This document shows positions 3 to 12,490 of a DNA stretch of 20,546 bases, one piece after another. The notes below the pieces were generated by a model that saw only the letters and a program-made list of their open reading frames with translations, was not told where the DNA came from and made no database searches. The position numbers and the translations under genes were made by a program. The stretch is from a virus. Position 1 is the first letter of the stretch; the number at the start of each line of letters is the position of its first letter. Location of the stretch: the IMG/VR virus record IMGVR_UViG_3300010274_000014, one strand, 5' to 3'.

Positions 3-821
3 GAAGACTTTCATCCTCAGTCATTCACGTTTATTGCAGCCAAGCTGGACGACAATCCTGCACTCACAACAAAAGATCCTGGTTATAGGGGCAGGCTCAT
101 GGCTCTTCCTCTTGTAGAACGTGAAAGGCTCCTGGGAGGAAACTGGAAGATCAGACATACTGCAGGGACAATGTTCCGGATGGAGTGGTTCCATTTCATA
201 GACCGCTCAGAAGTCCCTTTCAGGTCTCTGAATGAGTCTGAGCCAGACATCTACGTCATCCCAGAAAATAGCCGGAAAATCCGTGGAAAAATGCGTCTGG
301 TTCGCTGGTGGGATACAGCGGCTACAGAGCCAAGTCCTGAGAACAAAGATCCTGACTGGACTGCAGGGGTCCTCATGGGAGAGCTGGAAGGGAAGTTCTA
401 CATCCTCGACCTGGTTCACGTCCAGAAATCTCCTGGTGATGTTGAGGACCTCATGGCAGCAACAGCAGAGCTTGACGGGAAAAGCGTCGAGATCGGTATG
501 GAGGTAGAGCCGGGGTCCGCGGGCAAGAGGGAAGCTGAAAGGTTCAGGAGAACAATCTTTTCAGGATACACTTTTCACGCAGAGCGCAGCTCAGGCGACA
601 AAGTCACCAGGGCAAAGCCTTTCAGTTCAGCTGTTCAGCATGGCCTTGTCTATGTTGTCCGGGCCCCTTGGAATAATGAGTATCTTAGCGACCTTGTAAA
701 CTTTCCTAACCCGAAATACCACGATGACTGCGTAGATGCATCCAGCGCATCAAATGATTACCTGACAAGAAAAGGACCGAATAAAACAAGAGGGATTTCT
801 GCTCTCGTCCGGACTCGATAA
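3..821 (+). CDS. terL: Terminase large subunit, C-terminal nuclease part (5'-truncated)
   Basis: The frame is open from base 3 (EDFHPQSFTFIAAKLDDNPAL..YRGRLMALP..RERLLGGNW). It carries RWWDTAAT, GDKVTRAKP and FPNPKYHDDCVDA motifs typical of the Terminase_6C RNase H-like domain. Confidence 0.93.
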   Translation, partial: EDFHPQSFTFIAAKLDDNPALTTKDPGYRGRLMALPLVERERLLGGNWKIRHTAGTMFRMEWFHFIDRSEVPFRSLNESEPDIYVIPENSRKIRGKMRLVRWWDTAATEPSPENKDPDWTAGVLMGELEGKFYILDLVHVQKSPGDVEDLMAATAELDGKSVEIGMEVEPGSAGKREAERFRRTIFSGYTFHAERSSGDKVTRAKPFSSAVQHGLVYVVRAPWNNEYLSDLVNFPNPKYHDDCVDASSASNDYLTRKGPNKTRGISALVRTR

Positions 822-1260: not shown

Positions 1261-2502
1261 ATGTCTGAACTCAATGCAGCTGCCCCTACTCCTAAAAGGA
1301 AATTATCCTTAGCAGCAGCAGTCGAACCTCTTAACAGGTCGAACACTTCTTCAACATCCGGGCCCTATGTAAATTTTGACCAGAACAACAGATTTACTTT
1401 TTACCAGCAGCTATCCACCTGCAACCCCCACGTTTCTACCGGTCTAAACAAACTGGGGCTTTCCTTGGTCAAAGGCATGTCCTTCGATGGAAAAAAGCAG
1501 GCAGTGAAAGAGTTCAAAGAATATTCTAAAAAATCAAACTTCACAAACCAGATACAGACAATTTCCCGCGTCCTCTGCAGGGACGGGACTTATCTTGCAA
1601 AACCTGTGTACGGGGCAAACGGTGGTAGTTTCCGCCTTGTGCCTTTCCTGATGCCTTATACAACAATCCTGCCTGAGGGGTATGCACCAGGTTCACGACC
1701 CACAAAAATAATGCAGCCTGGAAAAGATCTGGAAAAAACCAGGTTCTATGTATACGAGAAACAGCAAGCTCAGGAAGTCCTCGAATTCAACAAGGTTGTA
1801 TATGGTAACTATAACGAATATGATTCAGTGCAGCTGGATGTCAAAAAGAGGAAAACATACGGGCTATACGGGTCGTCTCTTCTTGTTCCCTTGATTCCAA
1901 GCATTCAAAACCTCCTGGACATCGATCAGGGGTTCATTTCCTTTGTCAAAAAATATGGTAACGGGCGGTATATTTTCAATTTCAGGTTAGTCGAAGAGCT
2001 TGTGAAGCAGGATATAATCACTCCTGAGGAAGGACAGGAAATCATCAATGATTGGTGTGAGAAACACAAGGACCTGTCCGAAAATGAGGACATTGTAGGG
2101 GCAGGCATTGATGTCTACACACCCGATCCAAAAGGCTCTCTTGATATTACAAAATTCAAGGAGAGTCTTGAGACTGAAATTCAGATAGGACTCTTCCAAT
2201 CGCCTTTGAACATGGGTAAGGCTTCCGGCACGACTTATGCAAGTGCGTACATGGTCGAAGAAGACAGGATGTTAGTCCTCGAAGGGATTCAGGAAATTGT
2301 AAAAGGTCTTGCTCAGACAGCTGTAGATTTCAGGCAGGCTGCTGCAGGAAAACAGCCAGGTTCAGTGACAATTGAATTTGAGGAATTGTCGCTTGAAAAA
2401 TTAACAGTGACTGAGATGCAGGAAATGTACAACACAGGCGTAATTTCAAAAGAGATGTTTTTGAAACGTACAGGATTCCCGGAAGAGGAAATGCAGGAGT
2501 GA
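1261..2502 (+). CDS. Portal protein
   Basis: 413 aa, located between terL and MuF, with a helical/beta pattern compatible with a portal. Assigned mainly by size and position. Confidence 0.75.
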   Translation: MSELNAAAPTPKRKLSLAAAVEPLNRSNTSSTSGPYVNFDQNNRFTFYQQLSTCNPHVSTGLNKLGLSLVKGMSFDGKKQAVKEFKEYSKKSNFTNQIQTISRVLCRDGTYLAKPVYGANGGSFRLVPFLMPYTTILPEGYAPGSRPTKIMQPGKDLEKTRFYVYEKQQAQEVLEFNKVVYGNYNEYDSVQLDVKKRKTYGLYGSSLLVPLIPSIQNLLDIDQGFISFVKKYGNGRYIFNFRLVEELVKQDIITPEEGQEIINDWCEKHKDLSENEDIVGAGIDVYTPDPKGSLDITKFKESLETEIQIGLFQSPLNMGKASGTTYASAYMVEEDRMLVLEGIQEIVKGLAQTAVDFRQAAAGKQPGSVTIEFEELSLEKLTVTEMQEMYNTGVISKEMFLKRTGFPEEEMQE

Positions 2503-2552
2503 GTGCATGACACTGTAAAATGCAATACAATTCAAAAACGGAGATAAAAACG

Positions 2553-3524
2553 ATGTTAAAACAACTGTTTATGATATTATTTTTAGTTATGCTCTTAGCA
2601 ACACCGTCAGTCGCAAGTGAAAAAGGTGCTATAATCCAGATGACCACAACATTAGAAAACAGCGATACTCAGCTACATTTTAATTATGCTGAAAACCTGG
2701 GAGATGGGCGTGGTGTTACATTTGGGTGTATCGGGTTCTGCACTGGGACTTATGATGGGAACATCCTTGTCAAACATTATACTGAACTGAATCCAAATAA
2801 CAATCTTGCAAAGTATATCCCGGCTCTGAATAAGATTGATGCTGGTCCTCACAATGCAGCAGGTGGAGACGGAAATCCAAGCTTAGAGGGATTATCTGGA
2901 TTTATAAAAGACGTTCAGTCGTGCAATGACCCACTTTTCAAGACAGCTCAGATTGACAAACTGGATGAGCTCTACTATAATCCTGCAATGGAAATTGCAG
3001 ATTCTATAGGCGCAAAAAATGCACTTACTAAAGCTTTCATCTATGATATGTGCGTCAGGCATGGAGTTGACGGGGCAGAAAGCATCATCAGGAAGGCAGG
3101 TACTACTCCGAAGCAGGGAGCTGATGAGAACACATATCTCGGAAAGTTGATTTCACTCAGGGACGCAAAACTAAAGCAGGAAGGCCTGGGAGATGTAAAC
3201 AGAGATCAGGGATACAAAAACGTCCTCAACAGTGGAAATGTTAATCTTCAGACTCCCTTTACTTTCGTTGCTTATGGAGAATCTTTCACTATTGATGGCA
3301 ACTTAGATCTCGGAGAATACCAGGAAGAAATCCCAGTTGAAGAACCACCGGAAGTAATCGAACCGGAAGAACCTGAAGAACCTGAAATTACACCAGAGGA
3401 ACCTGTAATTACTCCAGAAGAGCCTGAAAACACGGAAGAAAAGGATAACAAATGGCATCATAAAAAATATCATAAACACGGCAGGCATCACAAAGAGTGT
3501 CACAGACACAGTAGAAGATGTTGA
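2553..3524 (+). CDS. Secreted GH46 chitosanase-like glycoside hydrolase with Glu/Pro linker and His/Lys-rich tail
   Basis: LENS..NYAENLGDGRGVTFGCIGFCTGT..HYTELNPNNNLAKYIPAL matches the GH46 signature, with the catalytic Glu in ENS and Asp in GDGRG. Signal peptide MLKQLFMILFLVMLLATPSVA. ATG at 2553 has GGAGA upstream; an alternative start is at 2520. Confidence 0.88.
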   Translation: MLKQLFMILFLVMLLATPSVASEKGAIIQMTTTLENSDTQLHFNYAENLGDGRGVTFGCIGFCTGTYDGNILVKHYTELNPNNNLAKYIPALNKIDAGPHNAAGGDGNPSLEGLSGFIKDVQSCNDPLFKTAQIDKLDELYYNPAMEIADSIGAKNALTKAFIYDMCVRHGVDGAESIIRKAGTTPKQGADENTYLGKLISLRDAKLKQEGLGDVNRDQGYKNVLNSGNVNLQTPFTFVAYGESFTIDGNLDLGEYQEEIPVEEPPEVIEPEEPEEPEITPEEPVITPEEPENTEEKDNKWHHKKYHKHGRHHKECHRHSRRC

Positions 3525-3564: not shown

Positions 3565-5199
3565 ATGCTTCTGAACACTCCTGAGATTCGTCGCATCGAA
3601 TCCAGGTTCCTTTCTCTTTTTGAAAGAACTTTCCTTAAAGGAATCAAGGGAAAGCCTGCACCCTCTTACCTGAAATCAGTCAAGACTCAGTTCAAGTCAA
3701 AGACCTTCCAGATCCAGGCGGACAAAATCATTGATGATATCTACCTGCAGTCAATCGAACATACAGACAAACAAACAAAAAAGGCGCAGGCAAGTGTACT
3801 AAAAAAAGGCAGTAGGCACTTATCAGCTGCTTCAAAACCTCTTCCGATTACCGAGGAAGCCGTCAGGCAGGCTGTAGGATTATCGAAGGAAGTAACCGAA
3901 TCAATCATCAAGTTCCTGAAGGATGATGGGATCTACCTTGAGCATCCAAACACGCTTGAGAAAAGAGTACGGGAACTATGGGGTGGACAGAAGTATAGAG
4001 CTGTAAGATTTGCCAGGACGTTCACAGCTGATGTGGCTACAAATACAGAGCTCTGGAGATATCAGGATGCAGGGATTGACGACCTGCAGTTCTATGCGAA
4101 GATAGATGACAAGACTTCTCCGCAGTGTCGCACTATGCATGGGACGGTTTTTAAGACTGATTCTCCTGAGGCTAGACGGTACCGTTGTCCTTTGCACCAA
4201 AATTGCCGCAGTAGCCTCCTTCCTGTGCCTATCACTCAGAAAGTAGATCCTAAGATGCGGTTCGAGAACAGGGACTTCACTAGGCAGATGGATCAAGAAT
4301 TCAATATCCTTGATGACCGAACAGACAAGGACCTCATCAAGAAAACCTTTTCCGATATCGATACCTTCAATGAGAAGTACAGGATTGATCAGTTCATTCT
4401 TGACGAGGATGTAGAAGCCAGGCTGCAGAAGTTGAACATCCAGATCCTGAGTGAGATCCCAAAGGAGAAAACTAACTTAAAATATACGCCAGTAAAGACA
4501 GTTAAAAAGGCTGAGGAGTGGCTATTGGAAAACACTTCAGTGAAGTATGCCGATTTCAAAGGAGTGCATATAGACATTGTTAATGAGATGATTGAAAGTT
4601 TCGTATACCATCTGAATCTAGAACCTAAACTTGCTAACAAAATGAAATTTTATGGAACAGGACAGGCACAATTCGAGCTGTGGTATCAGGATGAACTCAA
4701 GAAGGAAATCGAGTGGCTAAAAAAACTCCACCCAGAAGATGAAAAACTCATATTAGAAAGGGCAAAGAGGAGAATTAAAAAGCCAAAGATGGATGGCAAA
4801 ACATACGCTCATTCGTGGAATCATCCCAAGTTTGGAGGCATTGGAGTAAATAAAAAGTTCGGTAGCAACCCATTAACGTTTTCTGAATGTGCCGAAAAAG
4901 ATGAGAGTGTAGGATGGCATCCTACAGGCTGCAAAACTATTAAATCGATATTCGATCACGAGTTTGGCCATGAGTTAGATAACATTTATAACATATCCAA
5001 TTCAGATATAGTGTCAAATCTCTATACCAAAAAAAATATTGAAGAAATTCATAACAACCTTTCTAGGTATGCTCTGACTTCCAAACAAGAGCTTGTGGCA
5101 GAGGCATGGGCAGAATATCTAAATAATCCAAGTCCCAGAAATATTGCAAAGGAAGTTGGAGAGTTTATAACGTCAGAAGTCAACAAGGGTAAATCATGA
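3565..5199 (+). CDS. MuF (SPP1 gp7-like) minor head protein fused to a C-terminal zincin metalloprotease (putative polymorphic toxin)
   Basis: MuF motif FYAKIDDKTSPQCRTMHG..CPLHQNCRS. The C-terminus has HEFGH (4957-4971) and LSRYA..SKQELVAEAWAEY. Confidence 0.85.
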   Translation: MLLNTPEIRRIESRFLSLFERTFLKGIKGKPAPSYLKSVKTQFKSKTFQIQADKIIDDIYLQSIEHTDKQTKKAQASVLKKGSRHLSAASKPLPITEEAVRQAVGLSKEVTESIIKFLKDDGIYLEHPNTLEKRVRELWGGQKYRAVRFARTFTADVATNTELWRYQDAGIDDLQFYAKIDDKTSPQCRTMHGTVFKTDSPEARRYRCPLHQNCRSSLLPVPITQKVDPKMRFENRDFTRQMDQEFNILDDRTDKDLIKKTFSDIDTFNEKYRIDQFILDEDVEARLQKLNIQILSEIPKEKTNLKYTPVKTVKKAEEWLLENTSVKYADFKGVHIDIVNEMIESFVYHLNLEPKLANKMKFYGTGQAQFELWYQDELKKEIEWLKKLHPEDEKLILERAKRRIKKPKMDGKTYAHSWNHPKFGGIGVNKKFGSNPLTFSECAEKDESVGWHPTGCKTIKSIFDHEFGHELDNIYNISNSDIVSNLYTKKNIEEIHNNLSRYALTSKQELVAEAWAEYLNNPSPRNIAKEVGEFITSEVNKGKS

Positions 5200-5369
5200 C
5201 AATCGGAGCGGCACCAGTTTGTTTGGAATGTAAACATTTAATTGAAGATCTGGGTCCTATGCGATGCAAGGCATTTCCTGATGGCATTCCTGATGAGATC
5301 TGGAGAGGCAACAATGACCATAAGAAACCTTATCCTGGAGATCATGGGATACAGTTCGAACACGTATGA
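5196..5369 (+). CDS. Small Cys/His protein, copy 1 (57 aa; putative immunity protein; absent from the ORF track)
   Basis: Hand translation: [61 protein letters not shown] overlap with the MuF stop. Confidence 0.85.
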   Translation: MTIGAAPVCLECKHLIEDLGPMRCKAFPDGIPDEIWRGNNDHKKPYPGDHGIQFEHV

Positions 5370-5539
5370 CTATTGGACCCAGACCTGTATGTTTAGATTG
5401 CAAACATTTTATACACTAGAAGGGCTCGTTCAGGTGTGCCGCTTTCCCTGATGGTATCCCGGAAGAAATAGAGATGGGTGAGAACGACCACAAGAAGCCT
5501 TATCCTGGGGATCATGGAATTCAATTCGAGCACGTTTAA
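5366..5539 (+). CDS. Small Cys/His protein, copy 2 (57 codons, in-frame TAG at codon 18; pyrrolysine read-through or pseudogene)
   Basis: [56 protein letters not shown], with TAG at 5417-5419. ATGA overlap with copy 1. Confidence 0.75.
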
Positions 5540-5599
5540 AGGATGACTCAAGAAGCCATTAAGTCTTTAGCTTAGTGGCAGTTCGCCGAAGGAAGAAAC

Positions 5600-5812
5600 A
5601 TGACATGTATTGACGACCGGGAATTAGACAAAGTAACTTACAGTTCGATCTGTCTTCCGTGCAAACATTTTCAGAGAGAAGCTTATTCTGAAACCGGTAA
5701 AAAGACATGTGATGCTTTTCCTGATGGTATTCCTGATGAGATCTGGAGAGGCAACAATGACCATAAGAAACCGTACCCCGGAGATCATTGGATACAGTTC
5801 GAGCACTTATGA
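5600..5812 (+). CDS. Small Cys/His protein, copy 3 (70 aa)
   Basis: [40 protein letters not shown]. An in-frame ATG at 5543 is separated from it only by TAG 5573-5575. Confidence 0.85.
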   Translation: MTCIDDRELDKVTYSSICLPCKHFQREAYSETGKKTCDAFPDGIPDEIWRGNNDHKKPYPGDHWIQFEHL

Positions 5813-5982
5813 CTATTGGACCCAGACCTATCTGTTTTGAATGCAAACATTTTATAGATGAAGAGGGACCTATGAGATGTGAAGCCTTTCCGGATGGCAT
5901 CCCTGAAGATATCGTATTAGGAGATAACGATCATAAAAAGCCTTATCCTAGAGATAATGGAATCCAATTTGAGCATTTATGA
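5809..5982 (+). CDS. Small Cys/His protein, copy 4 (57 aa)
   Basis: [57 protein letters not shown]. The likely start is ATG 5809, an ATGA overlap with copy 3. Confidence 0.85.
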   Translation: MTIGPRPICFECKHFIDEEGPMRCEAFPDGIPEDIVLGDNDHKKPYPRDNGIQFEHL

Positions 5983-6085
5983 CTACTTTCCTCTTTTTAA
6001 TGAGGAGTATCTATTTTCGCATTTTATGAAACCTTATCTCAAAAGACCACGGTTTTAACTATATACAGATGGAGTAGTAAGCACG

Positions 6086-6298
6086 GTGGGAGAAAAATTC
6101 GTTTTGGATGACTCATCTGATGCAGAAATCATCTATAGCCCAATCTGCTCATATTGCAAACACTTCTATTGGAAAGGCAGAGGGATTCACGAATGTAATG
6201 CTTTTCCTGACGGCATCCCAGATGATATATGGAGAGGCGACAACGATCACAAGAAGCCTTACCCTGGAGATCACATGATTCAATTTGAACACGTTTAA
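6086..6298 (+). CDS. Small Cys/His protein, copy 5 (70 aa, GTG start)
   Basis: [40 protein letters not shown], with GGAG upstream. Confidence 0.85.
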   Translation: MGEKFVLDDSSDAEIIYSPICSYCKHFYWKGRGIHECNAFPDGIPDDIWRGDNDHKKPYPGDHMIQFEHV

Positions 6299-6427
6299 AA
6301 AAGCAAAATTTGTTTACTTACTTTCTTCTGCCATTCTGCTCTGTTTTATGTGGTGGACTTAGATATGAATTTCTAAGTTCTTCAGTGCAAATTTTTAAGG
6401 CTTTATCTATTTTTAAATCGGGAACTA

Positions 6428-6461
6428 TCGTATTTTCTCAACATATCTCGTATTTTCTCAA
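6428..6461 (+). repeat. 14-bp direct repeat TCGTATTTTCTCAA, two copies with a 20-bp period
   Basis: Copies at 6428-6441 and 6448-6461 in the convergent intergenic region. Confidence 0.6.
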
Positions 6462-6602
6462 TCCACTTTGGATAAAGAGCCATCTCTCGTTCACGTCTTT
6501 TACTTACCAAGAGCACCACGCATAGTATAATGACTTATCATCTTATAAAAAAACTTATTACTACAGGGCTACCTTTGGTGTAATTCTTCTGTTTTTGAGC
6601 TG

Positions 6603-6647: not shown

Positions 6648-7490
6648 TTAATACGTTATCTTATTGTTTCTTGTTATAGCACTTGGTGCATCAATTCCCG
6701 GCTTCGCACATTTCTCAATTATGTTGTCCTCTATGATTACATTTGACATTTTTGCCTCTATTGCTCGAACTCCTGGATAAGGTAGGTCCTTGATAGAATT
6801 CCCATAAGCTCGGATATCCTTGAGTTCTCCCTGCAACTGCAGACCAGTATGGCCACCTCCGGAGGTGCTGCATTTGTTGTTAAGAAACTCCCCTTTTGTC
6901 ACGTTATAGAAGCGGCAGCTGGAATTTGTTCGGTTGATGAACGTGGAATTTCTAACAGAGATGCCGTCCACGTAATAAGCGTATATCCCATCATGCCCAC
7001 ATTTGTTGACAGTTATTCGGTCTATGTCAACACCATAACAGTTGTTAAGCAGGATGGCATCATTGCAACCGTTCTGGAAAACACAATCCTCGAGAGTCAA
7101 ACCGTTACAGCCTATCAGGGTTGCCATGTTATAAAGCGAAGTTCCGAGCCTGACGTCAGGATAATAATCACTCTGACTACCATCGACAGTGAAGTTCTTC
7201 AGGACCACATTGTTTGCGGAGTTTCCAGCGATCATCAGCATAGCCTTTTCTTCTTTGATAGGACATCCACGGTAACCCCAGGCAGGCAGCCCTTTTGCGA
7301 GCTTTATTGTTGCACCATTTCCATCGAAGATGGTATGGCTACGGAACAGGAGAGAATCTTCTATTGTGTAGATGACATCCGGATCCAGGATTATCGTCCC
7401 ACCATGAGCAAGAGCTTGATTGATTGCTTCTGACGTGGTCCCACGATATGTCCTGAGCTTTCCATCTGCGCCGATAGCTTCAATCGTGTT
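6648..7490 (-). CDS. Parallel beta-helix (pectate-lyase-like/disaggregatase-related) domain, in frame with 7491-8072 across one TAG
   Basis: Frame 7490 to 7242 is open (NTIEAIGADGK..SEAINQALAHGGTIILDPDVIYTIEDSLLFRSHTIFDGNGATIKL..) and runs into MLMIAGNS at 7241. It has PbH1-like repeats and GHDGIYA..RTNS..R motifs. Read-through would give 474 aa from 8072. Confidence 0.8.
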   Translation of the reverse strand, partial: NTIEAIGADGKLRTYRGTTSEAINQALAHGGTIILDPDVIYTIEDSLLFRSHTIFDGNGATIKLAKGLPAWGYRGCPIKEEKAMLMIAGNSANNVVLKNFTVDGSQSDYYPDVRLGTSLYNMATLIGCNGLTLEDCVFQNGCNDAILLNNCYGVDIDRITVNKCGHDGIYAYYVDGISVRNSTFINRTNSSCRFYNVTKGEFLNNKCSTSGGGHTGLQLQGELKDIRAYGNSIKDLPYPGVRAIEAKMSNVIIEDNIIEKCAKPGIDAPSAITRNNKITY

Positions 7491-8072
7491 CTATCGCTTC
7501 AGTTTGACGTATATTTCAATACCTTCTGCCCGCTCCTTGATCTTCTCGGATATCTCTTCGGCTTCTGACTCAGAGACACATGGAATTACCAGGTAGGCTG
7601 CATCGTCCGGCTGAGTAGGGATCTCGGGTGTTTCAGGCTCCGGTTCGGTTGGCTTTTCAGGCTCCACAGGCTGTTCTGGTTCAGGCTCAGGATCGACATA
7701 AGAATAAGTGTATGCCACGTTCATCATTCGGGATCTGGGTGTCCCAGAGGTTTTCAGATACCATCTGATGATAACAGGCTTTCCAACTCCGGCAACAAAA
7801 TCTACTGCCTTGAGCTGCTCTTCATATTTTGTATTCTTTGTTGTGAATGTTGCCAGTTGTTCCTGCTTCCCATCGACTTCTATAGTAACTATGCATGTGC
7901 CTTCAATGCCTGAAGCCGAAACCTGAAATAACATGGAAAGCTTTTCAATCTTGATCCTCTTACCTTCCTGTGCTGGAATCGTTTCTTTTTTCTGCATTTC
8001 CCTTTCTGTCGAAAAATCGATTTCGGTGTAGATGGTCGAATATACTTTTTTTGTATCCTCAATGGTAGGCAT
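7491..8072 (-). CDS. Beta-rich domain, Glu/Pro linker and short C-terminal module; ends in TAG (possible read-through)
   Basis: 193 aa, with AGGAG upstream of ATG 8072 and a PEPEQPVEPEKPTEPEPE linker. The stop at 7493-7491 is TAG. Confidence 0.8.
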   Translation of the reverse strand: MPTIEDTKKVYSTIYTEIDFSTEREMQKKETIPAQEGKRIKIEKLSMLFQVSASGIEGTCIVTIEVDGKQEQLATFTTKNTKYEEQLKAVDFVAGVGKPVIIRWYLKTSGTPRSRMMNVAYTYSYVDPEPEPEQPVEPEKPTEPEPETPEIPTQPDDAAYLVIPCVSESEAEEISEKIKERAEGIEIYVKLKR

Positions 8073-8074
8073 GG

Positions 8075-9355
8075 TTATTTTCTCCTAAAAATCTGTTTTT
8101 CTGGTAATGAATTTCGAATAGCAGTAACCTGTTCAGAACTACAAGAAATAAACAAGAAAGCTGGTCTTTCAGCTGGCTCTTCTTCTGGACCCTCAACTGT
8201 GCTGGATACATTTATTGCACCGTAGTAATCCCCAGATTCGTTATTCAGGAAAGTGTTCTCAGAAGCTTCAACGGTATAGTAATCCTTTCCAAGAACATTG
8301 GCAATTGCATATCCTGAAACTGCCCCTGGATAGAAGGCCTTCCTTGTATTGACAATTGAGTTCTTCCTGACTGTTGCTTTGCAGCCCTTCACCCCACCTT
8401 TCCCGATGTAGTTGTCAAAACTGACCGCATTTCCAGAGCACCCATCAAAAATATTGTTCTCGATCAGAACATCCGTGAAACCATCAAAAACCATCCCACC
8501 TACTCCAGGGATCGTGTTCGCTGCTGGCATCATACCGCAGTTTCTGAATGTATTGTGATGGATGTACACTCCAGCTGCACCGCCCAGAGGCACGCTTGCT
8601 ATACCCCAGACACCAGGTCCGTAAGTGTCCTGGACCAGGCAATTCTTCATCTCGATATGCATGCATTTTGTCCCGTCCAGGATATTCTCAAGCTGCACAG
8701 GCGGAGCCCAGGCATTGTTCGTGAAGTCGTGGAACTGGCAGCTGTCAATCAGGACATTAGAAGAGGACCTTACCCGGACAGCATTGTTAGCCCGGATTTC
8801 AAAAGAACAGTTTTCAATCGTGGCTCCAGAACATTTGAAAAGGTGAATGAAGTCATGTCCCCCTTCTGCACCGGAGCAGTGGTCAAAGACAAGGTTTGAA
8901 CCGCCGTTCAGCCTCCACCCATCCCCCTCATTCCGGTTCACTTCCACATTCCGGAATACTGAGTTTGTGATATTTGAAAAGCCGAACAGGTTTCCATACC
9001 CTACTCCATGATCGTTCTGAGTGTTTCCCTGGTTTGCATAGTTCCCATCATAGACAAGGCCGTCAACTTCCAGGCCTGTAATCGAAGAGCCTTTCTGTCC
9101 TATGATAGGGACCTGTGCTCCAAAGTTAGGAGCGTTGTCCATGAGCTTCCATGTCACTCCTTCCTCGAAAGTCATTTTTGTATTATCGTTCAAAAACAGC
9201 CGGGAGTTGAGGAGGTATTGTCCGGTATCGCCTTTCAAAAAATGAACATGTGAGTACTGTAGCAGATCGCCGTTCACCGTTCCCGTTTTGTCAAGTGCCT
9301 TCTGTATGCCAGGGGAACTTGTTCCCTTAACCGGGGTTAGTATGCAGGTTTCCAC
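8075..9355 (-). CDS. Right-handed parallel beta-helix polysaccharide depolymerase-like protein (disaggregatase-related)
   Basis: 426 aa with repeats such as ITNSVFRNVEVNRNEGDGWRL, GGHDFIHL, DTYGPGVW, VYIHHNTF and LIENNIFDG. GTG start, no signal peptide. Confidence 0.82.
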   Translation of the reverse strand: METCILTPVKGTSSPGIQKALDKTGTVNGDLLQYSHVHFLKGDTGQYLLNSRLFLNDNTKMTFEEGVTWKLMDNAPNFGAQVPIIGQKGSSITGLEVDGLVYDGNYANQGNTQNDHGVGYGNLFGFSNITNSVFRNVEVNRNEGDGWRLNGGSNLVFDHCSGAEGGHDFIHLFKCSGATIENCSFEIRANNAVRVRSSSNVLIDSCQFHDFTNNAWAPPVQLENILDGTKCMHIEMKNCLVQDTYGPGVWGIASVPLGGAAGVYIHHNTFRNCGMMPAANTIPGVGGMVFDGFTDVLIENNIFDGCSGNAVSFDNYIGKGGVKGCKATVRKNSIVNTRKAFYPGAVSGYAIANVLGKDYYTVEASENTFLNNESGDYYGAINVSSTVEGPEEEPAERPAFLFISCSSEQVTAIRNSLPEKQIFRRK

Positions 9356-10020: not shown

Positions 10021-10147
10021 CAAGAGTTTTCCAAGACCAACTTAACTCCATAAAATATGCCAAAGAGGCATGATTAAGTTAGCTTTGCATATATTAAAGC
10101 TTACCTGATTCTGCCTCCTGGGTAAAATGCACAGGAGTGAGTAAATA

Positions 10148-11308
10148 ATGAAAGAATTTAGAACCGGAATTTTGCTTGTGACAATACTTTTGGCGAGTTT
10201 TGTTCTTGTACCAGCTACGAGTGCGGCTGCCGAGGATGCAAGTGTAAACAATCTCTCTGATAGTGAGGTTGAAACTTACGGCATCGATGGGCTAACTCCT
10301 CAACAGGTTAAAGAAATAGAAGCTGAAATCAGCCGTATAAGGGACATGCCAGATATTGTCAATAACTGCCCTTATATGCCTCTGCTTGTGGCCACTGACG
10401 AGCAAAAAGAGATTTTCTTAGGGTATATAGACAATTTATCAGTCTCGGACTCTGAGAAAAAGGAAATGAAAAAAGAATTGAAAGATATTTGGAGTCGTGT
10501 TCCAGACAAAATCACGGAAAAAGATTATCCAGTGATGGAAAAAATCGGAAAGGCAATAACCACACATGTTGAAGAGACATATTGGGCAGAAGATCAAAGT
10601 GTTAGATGGATGTCATATGCACACCGTAACTTAATTTCTGCCGGTGTCAATTTGGTTTATGGAAATCCTACTTGGGCAGGCTGGGCTTATGATACTGCTA
10701 TGGATCCCGATACCTCCATTGATACAGGTTCAATCTATGTCCCTGTACCTACTCCGCTTGGTTTTGTGACGATTTCGCTTCCTAAAAAATGTTACTACCA
10801 TTATTATAACCCAGATCTCAGTTTCGGAGGAGCTCCAGGGAAATGTTCTTCCTACGCAGCACAAGCAAAAACCTATTATGGGAATCAGGAATACCAAAAT
10901 GCTTTTGAAACACTTGGAATAGCCAGCCACTACCTTTCAGATGTAGCGCAGCCAATGCACTCGGGTGGAGAACTTGGGTCACTTGTGGATTATTTGCTAA
11001 ATTGGGACGTTACTTACCATATCAGATACGAACAATATGTGAACAATAATTGGAACACTGGCCGTAATTTCGGTAGATGGGTTACTCGAAACACCAATGT
11101 AAATACTGTAACCGACCCCGCTGAAGCAGTAAGATCCATGGCAGCATATAGTAATCCTTACTCCTCTTTATTATGGGACGAAATTTATGCTCATCCAGAC
11201 TTTGATGTACCGGGTCAAGATACGACATATATACAATACGTAACGATAATTATGAATCAGGAGGCAGCAAAGTATAATGCAGGTCTAGCAGAGTATATAA
11301 GTAGTTAA
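10148..11308 (+). CDS. Secreted Zn-dependent phospholipase C / S1-P1 nuclease superfamily protein
   Basis: Signal peptide; WMSYAH, DPD, HYY, HYLSDVAQPMH and HIRYEQY reproduce the tri-zinc ligand pattern of this superfamily. Confidence 0.78.
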   Translation: MKEFRTGILLVTILLASFVLVPATSAAAEDASVNNLSDSEVETYGIDGLTPQQVKEIEAEISRIRDMPDIVNNCPYMPLLVATDEQKEIFLGYIDNLSVSDSEKKEMKKELKDIWSRVPDKITEKDYPVMEKIGKAITTHVEETYWAEDQSVRWMSYAHRNLISAGVNLVYGNPTWAGWAYDTAMDPDTSIDTGSIYVPVPTPLGFVTISLPKKCYYHYYNPDLSFGGAPGKCSSYAAQAKTYYGNQEYQNAFETLGIASHYLSDVAQPMHSGGELGSLVDYLLNWDVTYHIRYEQYVNNNWNTGRNFGRWVTRNTNVNTVTDPAEAVRSMAAYSNPYSSLLWDEIYAHPDFDVPGQDTTYIQYVTIIMNQEAAKYNAGLAEYISS

Positions 11309-11590
11309 TAAAGCAGATTATGGAAACTGAAAACAAAGATGTCATTCGACTTATGAGCTGAAAAATCAGACATCAATACGTAGATAGGCTGCTTAGCTAT
11401 AGGTTTAGCAACATCAGGCTCCTGCTCGACAAGAAGGAATGTTTTATTGTCCAGATATTTTTGGATCTGATTTTAATCTTATATTGATCACAATAGGCGC
11501 TCTATTGAAAAAAGTAAGCACAATACAGAACTCATAAAATATTAGTGAAATAATTATTATATTTTATAAAAAATATAAGGTTGGATAAGC

Positions 11591-12490
11591 GTGACAAGAA
11601 AAAATCTATTGCTCATTCCTATCTTTTTTACCCTTTTGGTTACAAGCGTACTATTTTTCTATGTTGTTTATGCCATAAACACGGGTACGTACCTTAACAG
11701 GGAGCCTGTTGAGAGATACTATTTTGAGTATGATATCAAAGTTACAGGACTTTCTGGAAAGGAAGTGAGTGGAACGACTGTGATAATGGTTCCTATCCCT
11801 GCATCTAAGGAAGGTAAATTTTTTACTCCCTTTACGCAGAAACCTGATTTTATCCAGAGGTTTCTACTTAAAATCATGCACAAACCTGAACAAGATCGTA
11901 TAGGTCCTTATTTTGAAAATATAAGTGAAACACTTGATAATAAAGAAATAATGGGGAACTGGGTAACTTTCATTGCAGAAACCGACAAAGGTCACATGCT
12001 TGGATTCAGAACCAACGAGACAAGGCTCGAGGATATCTCGTATGGTGGTTGTTTTGTTGCAGATTACTTTGATATTTTTGATCCTATAAACAATGGAAGT
12101 CCAATGTTGTTTCCTGTTGAAAATATGTCTGATGTTTATTCTACCCCTTATGGAGACTACACTAAGTATGCCTCAAATCCGAAATATAATACTTATATCT
12201 ACTTAAGCGATAATCTAAAAGGAGGAGAAAATGTGTCTTTCTTTGTCTATTTGACTGCAAATAATGATCCATATGAATGGCCTGAAAAATACAGAGGTAG
12301 GTATAATAATCTGCTATTGGCGAAGGTTAATGACACAGGCTATGTAAAAGTCAGGACTATTATGGGACAGGAAATACCATGGGGAAATGACAGTCTTGAA
12401 GTAATGAGTACTCAGTATTTTTCAGATTTTTATGCTGATGAAACATCTGACAATGTAAATGTAACTCCCAGCTACACAGTAGTTGCATGA
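11591..12490 (+). CDS. Membrane-anchored protein of unknown function
   Basis: 299 aa, GTG start, N-terminal TM segment LLLIPIFFTLLVTSVLFFYVVYAI, AT-rich codons. Confidence 0.72.
   Translation: MTRKNLLLIPIFFTLLVTSVLFFYVVYAINTGTYLNREPVERYYFEYDIKVTGLSGKEVSGTTVIMVPIPASKEGKFFTPFTQKPDFIQRFLLKIMHKPEQDRIGPYFENISETLDNKEIMGNWVTFIAETDKGHMLGFRTNETRLEDISYGGCFVADYFDIFDPINNGSPMLFPVENMSDVYSTPYGDYTKYASNPKYNTYIYLSDNLKGGENVSFFVYLTANNDPYEWPEKYRGRYNNLLLAKVNDTGYVKVRTIMGQEIPWGNDSLEVMSTQYFSDFYADETSDNVNVTPSYTVVA

Follow-up and report, generated by a model that had tools for sequence, protein, structure and literature searches.

A tandem array of five Cys/His mini-genes behind the MuF gene of a Methanosarcina provirus as a candidate polyimmunity locus against virus-delivered enzymes

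The DNA considered here, hereafter the window, is the whole stretch of 20,546 nucleotides (nt) of the IMG/VR virus record IMGVR_UViG_3300010274_000014, which corresponds to the head-tail module of a tailed Methanosarcina provirus. Directly behind its MuF gene, whose product bears an enzyme domain of the zincin type at its C-terminus, five small paralogous genes with conserved cysteines and histidines stand in tandem at 5196-6298. We consider it fairly probable that this array is a homogeneous polyimmunity locus, that is, a set of plugs which are coded for effector type by their N-terminal tails and which act against the virus's own effector and those of rival viruses. According to this explanation, the five genes are paralogues of a protein of about 55 residues that would plug the enzymes which tailed viruses attach to their head proteins and deliver with the DNA, and each member of the family would pair with the effector domain encoded directly upstream of it. 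The conserved C-terminal half would serve as a scaffold, and the tail and the loop after the CxxCxH motif would be specific for the type of effector and lie in the active-site cleft; plugging would keep the enzyme silent in the producing cell. Copy 1 would be the cognate inhibitor of the MuF zincin, copies 2 and 4 would be more variants of the zincin type, and copies 3 and 5 would be variants of a second type (JAB), fitted to MuF-JAB effectors that related Methanosarcina proviruses carry. The array would have originated from successive effector cassettes displacing one another, and it would be retained because a lysogen making all five copies resists the effectors injected by competing viruses.

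The five copies lie on the same strand and span 1,103 nt, with spacers of -4, 60, -4 and 103 nt and no toxin gene between them (Table 1). Thirty alignment columns are invariant over the five copies, including C9, C12, K13, H14, C24, the AFPDGIP block, NDHKKPYP and IQFEH, and the variable parts are the N-terminal tail and a loop of 9-13 residues from CKH to the third cysteine. The tail is short (MTIGxxPxC) in copies 1, 2 and 4 and long (DD...YSxIC) in copies 3 and 5. A first-pass annotation, made from the DNA letters alone, had already described five paralogous open reading frames (ORFs), two N-terminal types and a variable loop followed by a conserved C-terminal half, and all of these were found again; the ATGA overlaps that it reported between MuF and copy 1, copies 1 and 2, and copies 3 and 4 can be read straight from the sequence. 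Its remark that the program-made list of ORFs had missed or mis-started copies 1, 2 and 4 is right for copy 2, which is split, and for copy 4, which is mis-started at TTG, and wrong for copy 1, which is listed correctly. In the public annotation of an identical locus (L097), only copies 1, 3 and 4 are called; a minus-strand call of 46 amino acids (aa) stands in the place of copy 2 and a wrong-frame ORF of 52 aa in that of copy 5. Among the five copies, the proportion of synonymous differences is 0.7-1.0 (0.38 for copies 1 and 3), so that synonymous sites are near saturation, and the proportion of nonsynonymous differences is 0.05-0.15. Because of this near-saturation, the low nonsynonymous divergence and the low ratios of nonsynonymous to synonymous substitution (dN/dS) against orthologues that are described below, the five copies are old, distinct and constrained, including copy 2 up to an in-frame TAG.

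Table 1. Positions of the array, of its upstream gene and of other features in the window
Feature	Position	Strand	Basis or remark
Copy 1, short tail (zincin-type), 57 aa	5196-5369	+	Start overlaps MuF stop (ATGA)
Copy 2, short tail, 57 codons, in-frame TAG	5366-5539	+	Start overlaps copy 1 stop (ATGA)
Copy 3, long tail (JAB-type), 70 aa	5600-5812	+	77-81% nt identity to orthologues; dN/dS 0.06-0.10; tail motif
Copy 4, short tail (zincin-type), 57 aa, ATG at 5809	5809-5982	+	Start overlaps copy 3 stop (ATGA)
Remnant of JAB-type MuF 3' end, non-coding	6037-6085	+	BLASTN match to L009, L012, L013
Copy 5, long tail (JAB-type), 70 aa, GTG start	6086-6298	+	82-86% nt identity; dN/dS 0.02-0.11
MuF protein, 544 aa	3565-5199	+	
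MuF conserved N-terminal part, aa 1-303, Phage_Mu_F domain	3565-4473	+	PF04233 E 1.7e-9, TIGR01641 7.7e-33
MuF C-terminal effector domain, zincin-like metallopeptidase (class B)	4474-5199	+	HExxH, PHROG matches
Stretch of higher RNA-contig depth	5030-6560	+	Contigs of four studies, depth 4-105
Terminase C-terminal part	3-821		
Portal-like gene	1261-2502		
Secreted GH46 glycosidase	2520-3524		

The pairing of the mini-proteins with effectors was studied in 89 related loci with a profile-detected domain, namely 80 viral contigs, 7 of 8 genome contigs and 2 phage records. Five copies are found in the window only; 85 of these loci have one copy, three have two and one has three dispersed copies, so the window is exceptional in this respect. 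The mini-gene start lies close behind a long ORF, whose end is at -3 to +90 nt from it, in about 70 of 88 related loci. Of 79 upstream ORFs, 40 have a Phage_Mu_F domain according to Pfam and 50 according to an iterated profile, and 49 of these 50 MuF ORFs have 187-562 residues beyond the MuF domain. The family is thus strongly linked to effector-bearing MuF genes. Its claim that the mini-genes are coupled to the MuF toxin is borne out insofar as the linkage to such genes is strong; the partner, however, appears to be the effector domain and not MuF itself.

When the last 230 residues of the upstream ORFs were used to define classes, three were obtained which are unrelated with one another (between-class hhalign probability <1%). 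Class B, which includes the window MuF, consists of zincins with an HExxH motif and a nearly invariant downstream Glu (28 + 3 loci; the BLAST cluster of class B C-termini has 28 members, and HExxH is common to 31 of the 32 upstream ORFs matching the window MuF C-terminus). The window MuF has an extension of 314 residues past the MuF domain, in which the motif is HEFGH at aa 465-469 (nt 4957-4971) and the nearly invariant downstream residue is Glu509; the domain matches PHROG 324 and 7153 and, weakly, Pfam ATLF (E 0.037). Class A, found in 32 loci including all close Methanosarcina proviruses, is characterized by an E...HxH-x6-S-x2-D motif with E82, H121, H123, S130 and D133 nearly invariant, the spacer being 6 residues against 7 in the JAMM motif (HxH-x7-S-x2-D). 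A Pfam search gave no match for the class A domain; the top fold matches of its model (predicted local distance difference test, pLDDT, 86) are all JAB/MPN proteins (RadC, AMSH, JAMM1 and Cap3) with a probability of 0.8-0.96 and weak E values of about 0.02-0.2. Class C consists of ADP-ribosyltransferases (ARTs, PF03496).

The tail of the mini-protein follows the class of the upstream effector. Partners of class A have a tail of 14-28 residues, typically ..DD..EL..YSP.C, in 27 of 29 cases, those of class B have a tail of at most 13 residues, typically M.xGxxP.C, in 28 of 29, and those of class C have other long tails in all six. Along the tree of MuF domains, there are 11 changes of effector class and 10 of tail type. 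The mini-domain also occurs in fused proteins, where it is mostly N-terminal and often stands ahead of virion-delivered effectors and of MuF itself; fusions to ArsR-type helix-turn-helix, topoisomerase IB and SseB-like domains occur as well. In an out-of-sample check on further loci, the upstream domain matched the tail in eight of eight, whatever the carrier, and two more loci gave no assignment. In one of these loci, from Actinomadura, a protein of 681 aa has a class B zincin at its end, and the short-tail domain behind it is joined to an SseB-like protein. In others, stand-alone zincins stand ahead of short-tail domains joined to ArsR and to topoisomerase IB, a portal-JAB fusion ahead of a ..D..YSPVC domain joined to ART and S-adenosylmethionine (SAM) lyase, and a stand-alone ART ahead of a long-tail domain joined to MuF. 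The loci of Flavobacterium phage lotta8-2 gp028 and Brevibacillus phage Jenst gp116 and locus L057 fit too. In all checked fusions, the matching effector is the gene just upstream and never the fused downstream part. A generic partner of MuF or packaging adaptor, which the variety of effector folds and the mostly N-terminal place of the domain in fusions would suggest, was rejected because the tail follows the effector class and the matching effector is always upstream in the checked fusions.

Two of the loci deserve description in their own right. L107 (3331-10853, Actinomadura craniellae) is non-viral and contains a DUF6507 gene and the gene for the 681-aa zincin protein, then the mini-domain/SseB-like fusion and, further downstream, a second gene of 300 aa; it has the appearance of a locus for a secreted polymorphic toxin in which the same zincin and mini-domain are paired. 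In L091 (3452-8292), the gene for a portal protein of 850 aa that ends in a JAB-like domain stands before the gene for a protein of 763 aa, in which the mini-domain is combined with an ADP-ribosyltransferase, DUF3293 and a SAM lyase. The latter resembles a polyvalent injected protein headed by the partner of the portal's own effector.

The contact between copy 1 and MuF was modelled as well. The predicted complex of full-length MuF with copy 1 has an ipSAE of 0.62 (0.60-0.66 in three runs), a mark reached by 58 of 80 solved complexes and by 2 of 110 mismatched pairs, counts which are only rough because alignments of our own were used; the best control had 0.41. The runs have at least 98% of contacts in common, and the pLDDT of the partner is at least 81. 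The predicted interface comprises residues 410-418, 442-452, 462, 465-466, 469 and 487-512 of MuF, that is, the HEFGH motif and E509, and residues 1-7, 10, 17-22, 33 and 37-39 of copy 1. The model supports the view that copy 1 would cover the HExxH...E site with its tail and variable loop. Prediction of the complex of each copy with the protease domain had been proposed as a check; for copy 1, the model passed its controls and placed the mini-protein on the catalytic site of the zincin. In the first-pass annotation the loop was supposed to set the specificity; the main class-specific element turns out to be the tail, and the loop comes second. Tissue inhibitors of metalloproteinases (TIMPs) and serralysin inhibitors are small proteins which insert their first few residues into the active-site cleft over the catalytic zinc. 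The predicted placement of residues 1-7 of copy 1 resembles theirs in mechanism only, since the mini-protein shares neither sequence nor fold with them.

Comparison with related proviruses indicates how the array may have been formed. The MuF protein of the window is 72% identical to that of provirus L011 across residues 1-303, where homology ends, and the mini-genes of the window and of L011 are alike only in their 3' halves, with about 81% nt identity. Because MuF identity stops after residue 303 and the mini-genes resemble each other in their 3' halves, what is exchanged appears to be the effector domain along with the 5' half of its partner gene, with the MuF body on one side and the conserved 3' half of that gene on the other. 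Copy 3 is orthologous over its full length to the genes that accompany JAB-type MuF genes in L003, L011, L016, L017 and L021 (77-81% nt identity over 210-223 nt), and copy 5 is an orthologue of those in L009, L012 and L013 (82-86% over 237-268 nt) and is 88% identical to a Methanosarcina horonobensis protein. Against these orthologues, copies 3 and 5 have dN/dS values of 0.02-0.12, that is, they are under strong purifying selection. Furthermore, the match to L009, L012 and L013 begins at 6037-6039, inside their MuF genes, and thus includes 48 nt of a MuF 3' end, which by its position would be the footprint of a displaced effector cassette. The virus has partners for an effector type which it does not itself encode in the window and which its relatives carry. 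The first-pass annotation had taken the additional copies for a library collected against rival viruses, and such a library predicts just this orthology of copies 3 and 5 with the JAB-type partners of related Methanosarcina proviruses.

Members of the family with a long tail are also present as orphans in the chromosomes of Methanosarcinales, with no effector domain detected within 6 kb. Two of them are in tandem after a gene for an AMP-binding enzyme and two are near the mtr operon. In M. hadiensis (L104, 8001-8216), a single long-tail orphan separates the R gene from the S gene in a type I restriction system, beside an Mrr-like gene.

The same displacement could have left copies 2-5 as mere leftovers, that is, new cassettes pushed the old partner genes downstream and only copy 1 matters now. 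This is unlikely, although several features of the array would suit it: the 48-nt remnant of a JAB-type MuF 3' end before copy 5, short ATGACT stubs behind copies 2 and 4, the TAG in copy 2 where its relatives have Glu, and the loss of the ATG of copy 5. In addition, orphan modules behind polymorphic toxin genes are well known (PMC3482391). Leftovers, however, would not be expected to keep dN/dS at 0.02-0.12 against orthologues, as copies 3 and 5 do, or to keep the invariant residues in all five copies at nearly saturated synonymous sites. Moreover, contigs from RNA libraries span the whole array, and the locus is identical in seven other samples except for two single-base differences: the compared stretch has zero differences in six samples, including a 192-kb contig of an isolate assembly, and both differences are in the seventh, a contig of low coverage (about 2x). 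An origin by displacement is in any case compatible with retention for function.

The TAG in copy 2 is in frame at 5417-5419 (codon 18), a point that had been missed in the first reading of the sequence. The nearest relatives of copy 2 have Glu at this position (IHEKGSF against IH-TAG-KGSF), so one G-to-T substitution in a GAG codon would explain it, and all the invariant residues 3' of the TAG are kept. It is found in all seven other samples with the locus, so that comparison between samples is uninformative on this codon. Methanosarcina, the likely host group, can decode TAG as pyrrolysine. As the closest homologues of the family are from Methanosarcina, Methanolobus and Methanocella and TAG terminates only one of the 23 genes of the window, read-through of copy 2 with pyrrolysine is possible; copy 2 would be an intact gene only given such read-through of its TAG, for example as pyrrolysine.

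As for expression, 17 RNA-library runs from anaerobic digesters contain 0.34-0.56 of the sampled words of 3565-6400, and runs of unstated library type contain 0.49-0.98 of them, four at least 0.90. The depth of the RNA contigs is 1-7 over the terminase, portal and GH46 (glycoside hydrolase family 46) genes and most of MuF against 4-105 at about 5030-6560, and the contigs of three studies start at 5029-5033. This is a weak hint of a separate transcript for the array, and no stronger because the data are assembled contigs and not reads, with one depth figure per contig, and because the runs were selected using a stretch of the window; uncovered stretches in such contigs prove nothing. RNA contigs of four studies also lie over the genes at 10148-11308 and 11591-12490, which have no family match, with depths as high as those over the array, and this region (10026-12000) is possibly another one expressed in the lysogen.

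Another explanation accepts the pairing with effectors and reverses its sense. The mini-protein would be a positive partner of the enzyme, namely a chaperone for assembly or packaging, a co-delivered cofactor or a processed substrate, and the array would supply several of them. The evidence of linkage and co-variation applies equally to such a partner, a tail in the cleft is also the binding mode of a substrate, the domain is often fused ahead of other virion-delivered effectors and MuF, and the conserved C-terminal half suggests a common second contact. In that case, however, one small protein would have to serve three chemically different enzymes, two of them with peptidase-like folds and one an ADP-ribosyltransferase, and chaperone copies for an effector type which the virus lacks would make little sense. 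The effector-less orphans in host chromosomes, one of which is in a defence island, are also difficult to understand as chaperones or substrates, and the checked fusions pair with the upstream gene and not with the part fused downstream. We therefore regard a positive partner as improbable.

The mini-proteins themselves belong to a large family without a name. Copies 1, 3, 4 and 5 match PHROG 33375, a family of unknown function, at E 2.2e-9 to 7.8e-8 over profile positions 6-56 of 72, and a search with a profile of the family found 9,104 representative clusters at E <= 1e-3, which come from bacteria, from archaea and from viruses of both; a word-indexed search gave 2,566 proteins. Because four copies match the independent PHROG 33375 and the profile finds 9,104 clusters, the shared family is not a matter of chance. 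In Pfam-A and NCBIfam, no family was found for the four copies at E <= 0.1, including Imm1-74, SUKH and SuFu, and the precomputed Pfam assignment is blank for all 120 homologues listed. The neighbours in the ESM Atlas are nameless clusters in which about half of the members having a record are viral, and the nearest named cluster, DUF6472, scores no better than chance (0.77). Two ORFs of 61 and 57 aa that lie between the effector genes of L092 do not belong to the family. Many relatives contain 2-4 tandem domains in one polypeptide; P0242, P0258 and P0271, for example, are proteins of 172-276 aa with three or four tandem copies, which are joined in P0242 by short linkers of the zincin type (TPxPKC).

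Over 112 sequences, C9, C12 and C24 are invariant and H14 and H42 nearly so. The AlphaFold model of the mini-protein (pLDDT 84) has hardly any regular secondary structure, as expected for a mini-domain held together by a metal, and with its three invariant cysteines and the histidine the protein is probably stabilised by zinc, the identity of the metal being a guess. Fold searches gave little: the best Foldseek match in the PDB has an E of about 5 (high-potential iron-sulfur protein, HiPIP, and small subunits of benzylsuccinate synthase), a wide VIA-align search gave zero matches at Z >= 2, and a profile search against PDB sequences found only the zinc sites of eL42 and L36, weakly (E 0.2-0.6). 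Two other identities were considered and rejected. A HiPIP-like iron-sulfur protein is disfavoured by the Foldseek values (E about 5, probability 0.04), the lack of a VIA-align match at Z >= 2 and the presence of three conserved cysteines only, and the reading of DHxxP...G as half of an HNH motif by the lack of a Pfam HNH match at E <= 0.1 and of a beta-beta-alpha element in the model.

A family of this breadth might also have a function of its own unrelated with effectors, such as that of a small metal-, redox- or nucleic-acid-binding regulator, and owe its position beside MuF to operon history. The strong conservation of the C-terminal half from Methanosarcina viruses to Flavobacterium and Brevibacillus phages, the fusions to ArsR-type helix-turn-helix, topoisomerase IB and SseB-like domains, the chromosomal copies away from any virus and the weak likeness of the CxxCKH knuckle to the eL42 and L36 zinc sites (E 0.2-0.6) are in line with this. 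However, the checked ArsR, topoisomerase and SseB fusions have a zincin gene directly upstream and a tail of the zincin type, the relationship between tail and effector would be left unexplained, and the complex model passes its controls. An effector-unrelated function is therefore very unlikely.

Several points weigh against the interpretation of the array as a polyimmunity locus. The C-terminal half is about 55-70% identical across bacteria and archaea, which is beyond the need of a mere scaffold, and the interface of the model barely includes it. P0180 and L074 carry the domain fused directly behind the MuF domain, with the effector between them absent. Among the loci, L019 and L060 are of class A and short-tailed, and the short-tail loci L062 and L063 have no effector domain detected nearby. 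The supported branches of the MuF-domain tree give 4 independent contrasts, of which 3-4 are concordant and 0 opposed (p 0.125-0.25), a comparison that is underpowered. Co-variation between tail and effector is expected of any physical partner, such as a chaperone, substrate or packaging adaptor, and alone is no proof of inhibition. The tail of a substrate would bind in the cleft in the same way, and ipSAE is a measure of model confidence in which a control partner without any relation to MuF attained 0.41. The TAG interrupts copy 2, and copy 5 starts with GTG only. In addition, the MuF-borne enzymes may be take-over or processing enzymes rather than toxins (PMC5512222).

The conserved C-terminal half could be accommodated if the mini-protein were a universal latch for virion-delivered enzymes, in archaea as well as in bacteria. 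The tail would plug the enzyme, and the nearly invariant C-terminal half (AFPDGIP...DH..PYPGD.GI.FE and the metal site) would be a switch or docking surface by which inhibition is coupled to head packaging and released on ejection, for example through metal loss or unfolding; free latches would then have been collected by hosts and resident proviruses for protection from the effectors of incoming viruses. We assign little probability to this version. If it were true, it would mean a new, widespread layer of virus-virus and virus-host conflict which reaches methanogens.

Tandem immunity genes as such have been described before. Zhang et al. (2012, PMC3482391) defined polyimmunity loci, polyimmunity proteins and immunity families that neutralise many toxin folds, and the extended polyimmunity loci (at least 4 genes) known at that time were from four bacterial phyla only. 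Like the SUKH, Imm11 and Imm33 loci described there, the array in the window consists of close paralogues in tandem on the same strand with no toxin gene between them, and like those families the mini-protein family pairs with several unrelated effector folds, has relatives with 2-4 tandem domains and includes chromosomal orphans. Unlike SUKH, Imm11 and Imm33, the mini-protein has no match to Pfam Imm, SUKH or SuFu families, is only about 55 residues long and looks like a metal knuckle, and its array is in the head module of an archaeal virus. Jamet et al. (2017, PMC5576092) proposed that small ORFs behind MuF toxins are immunity genes. The window MuF resembles these MuF polymorphic toxins in combining a MuF N-terminus with an interchangeable enzyme domain at the C-terminus and in having a small ORF coupled to its 3' end, and differs from the described ones in that the effectors are zincin- and JAB-like, with putative toxicity, and that a GH46 gene lies between portal and MuF. 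For Bsi, which acts against Bxa (PMC11699363), and for specific Apk2 immunity proteins (PMC12226406), occlusion of the active site has been shown by experiment; these proteins are small, non-enzymatic and encoded beside prophage toxins. The systems described in these papers are from bacterial prophages, with immunity that is specific for one toxin family, and in contrast the mini-protein family spans several effector folds. Iyer et al. (PMC5512222) interpreted zincin, ART and other domains fused to MuF as injected take-over effectors.

The array also recalls the orphan cassettes of contact-dependent inhibition (CDI) and Rhs systems, where replacement of a 3' cassette leaves older modules behind (see also PMC3482391), and the 48-nt remnant before copy 5 is of this kind. 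It differs from CDI and Rhs in that partner genes are kept with almost no toxin fragments, and in that the downstream recombination homology seems to be inside the conserved 3' half of the partner gene. The family is not described in the available portions of PMC3482391, PMC5576092, PMC11699363, PMC12226406 and PMC5512222. The system had been put forward as undescribed, and this needs to be divided: the kind, tandem immunity arrays, is known, and the family, the tail code across three effector folds and the array in an archaeal virus are new.

The surroundings of the array are those of a virus head module. The gene order is terminase, portal-like gene, GH46 and MuF, the GH46 gene splitting portal from MuF so that MuF is the second gene after the portal, and scaffold-like, adaptor, major tail and tape-measure genes follow downstream of the array. 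The GH46 protein, of the chitosanase family, has a Glu/Pro-rich linker and a His/Lys/Arg-rich tail, and is possibly a depolymerase for the Methanosarcina cell envelope. Furthermore, the head module is broken up by three genes on the opposite (minus) strand at 6648-9355, two of which encode beta-helix proteins, one with a disaggregatase-associated domain (PF08480) and a match to a tail-spike PHROG; these two are candidate envelope-degrading enzymes.

If the interpretation of the array as a polyimmunity locus is confirmed, it would give a name and an explanation to a huge orphan family of more than 9,000 clusters at 50% identity, whose members would be generic, tail-coded inhibitors of those three enzyme types which are most often attached to MuF and portal proteins in tailed viruses. 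The rule that leads from tail type to effector type is a simple sequence rule which can be tested at the bench, and the family would provide a small scaffold of natural origin for blocking the sites of zincins, JAB enzymes and ADP-ribosyltransferases. The array would be the first extended polyimmunity array known to us in an archaeal virus, and it would point to effector-based competition between Methanosarcina viruses in anaerobic digesters.

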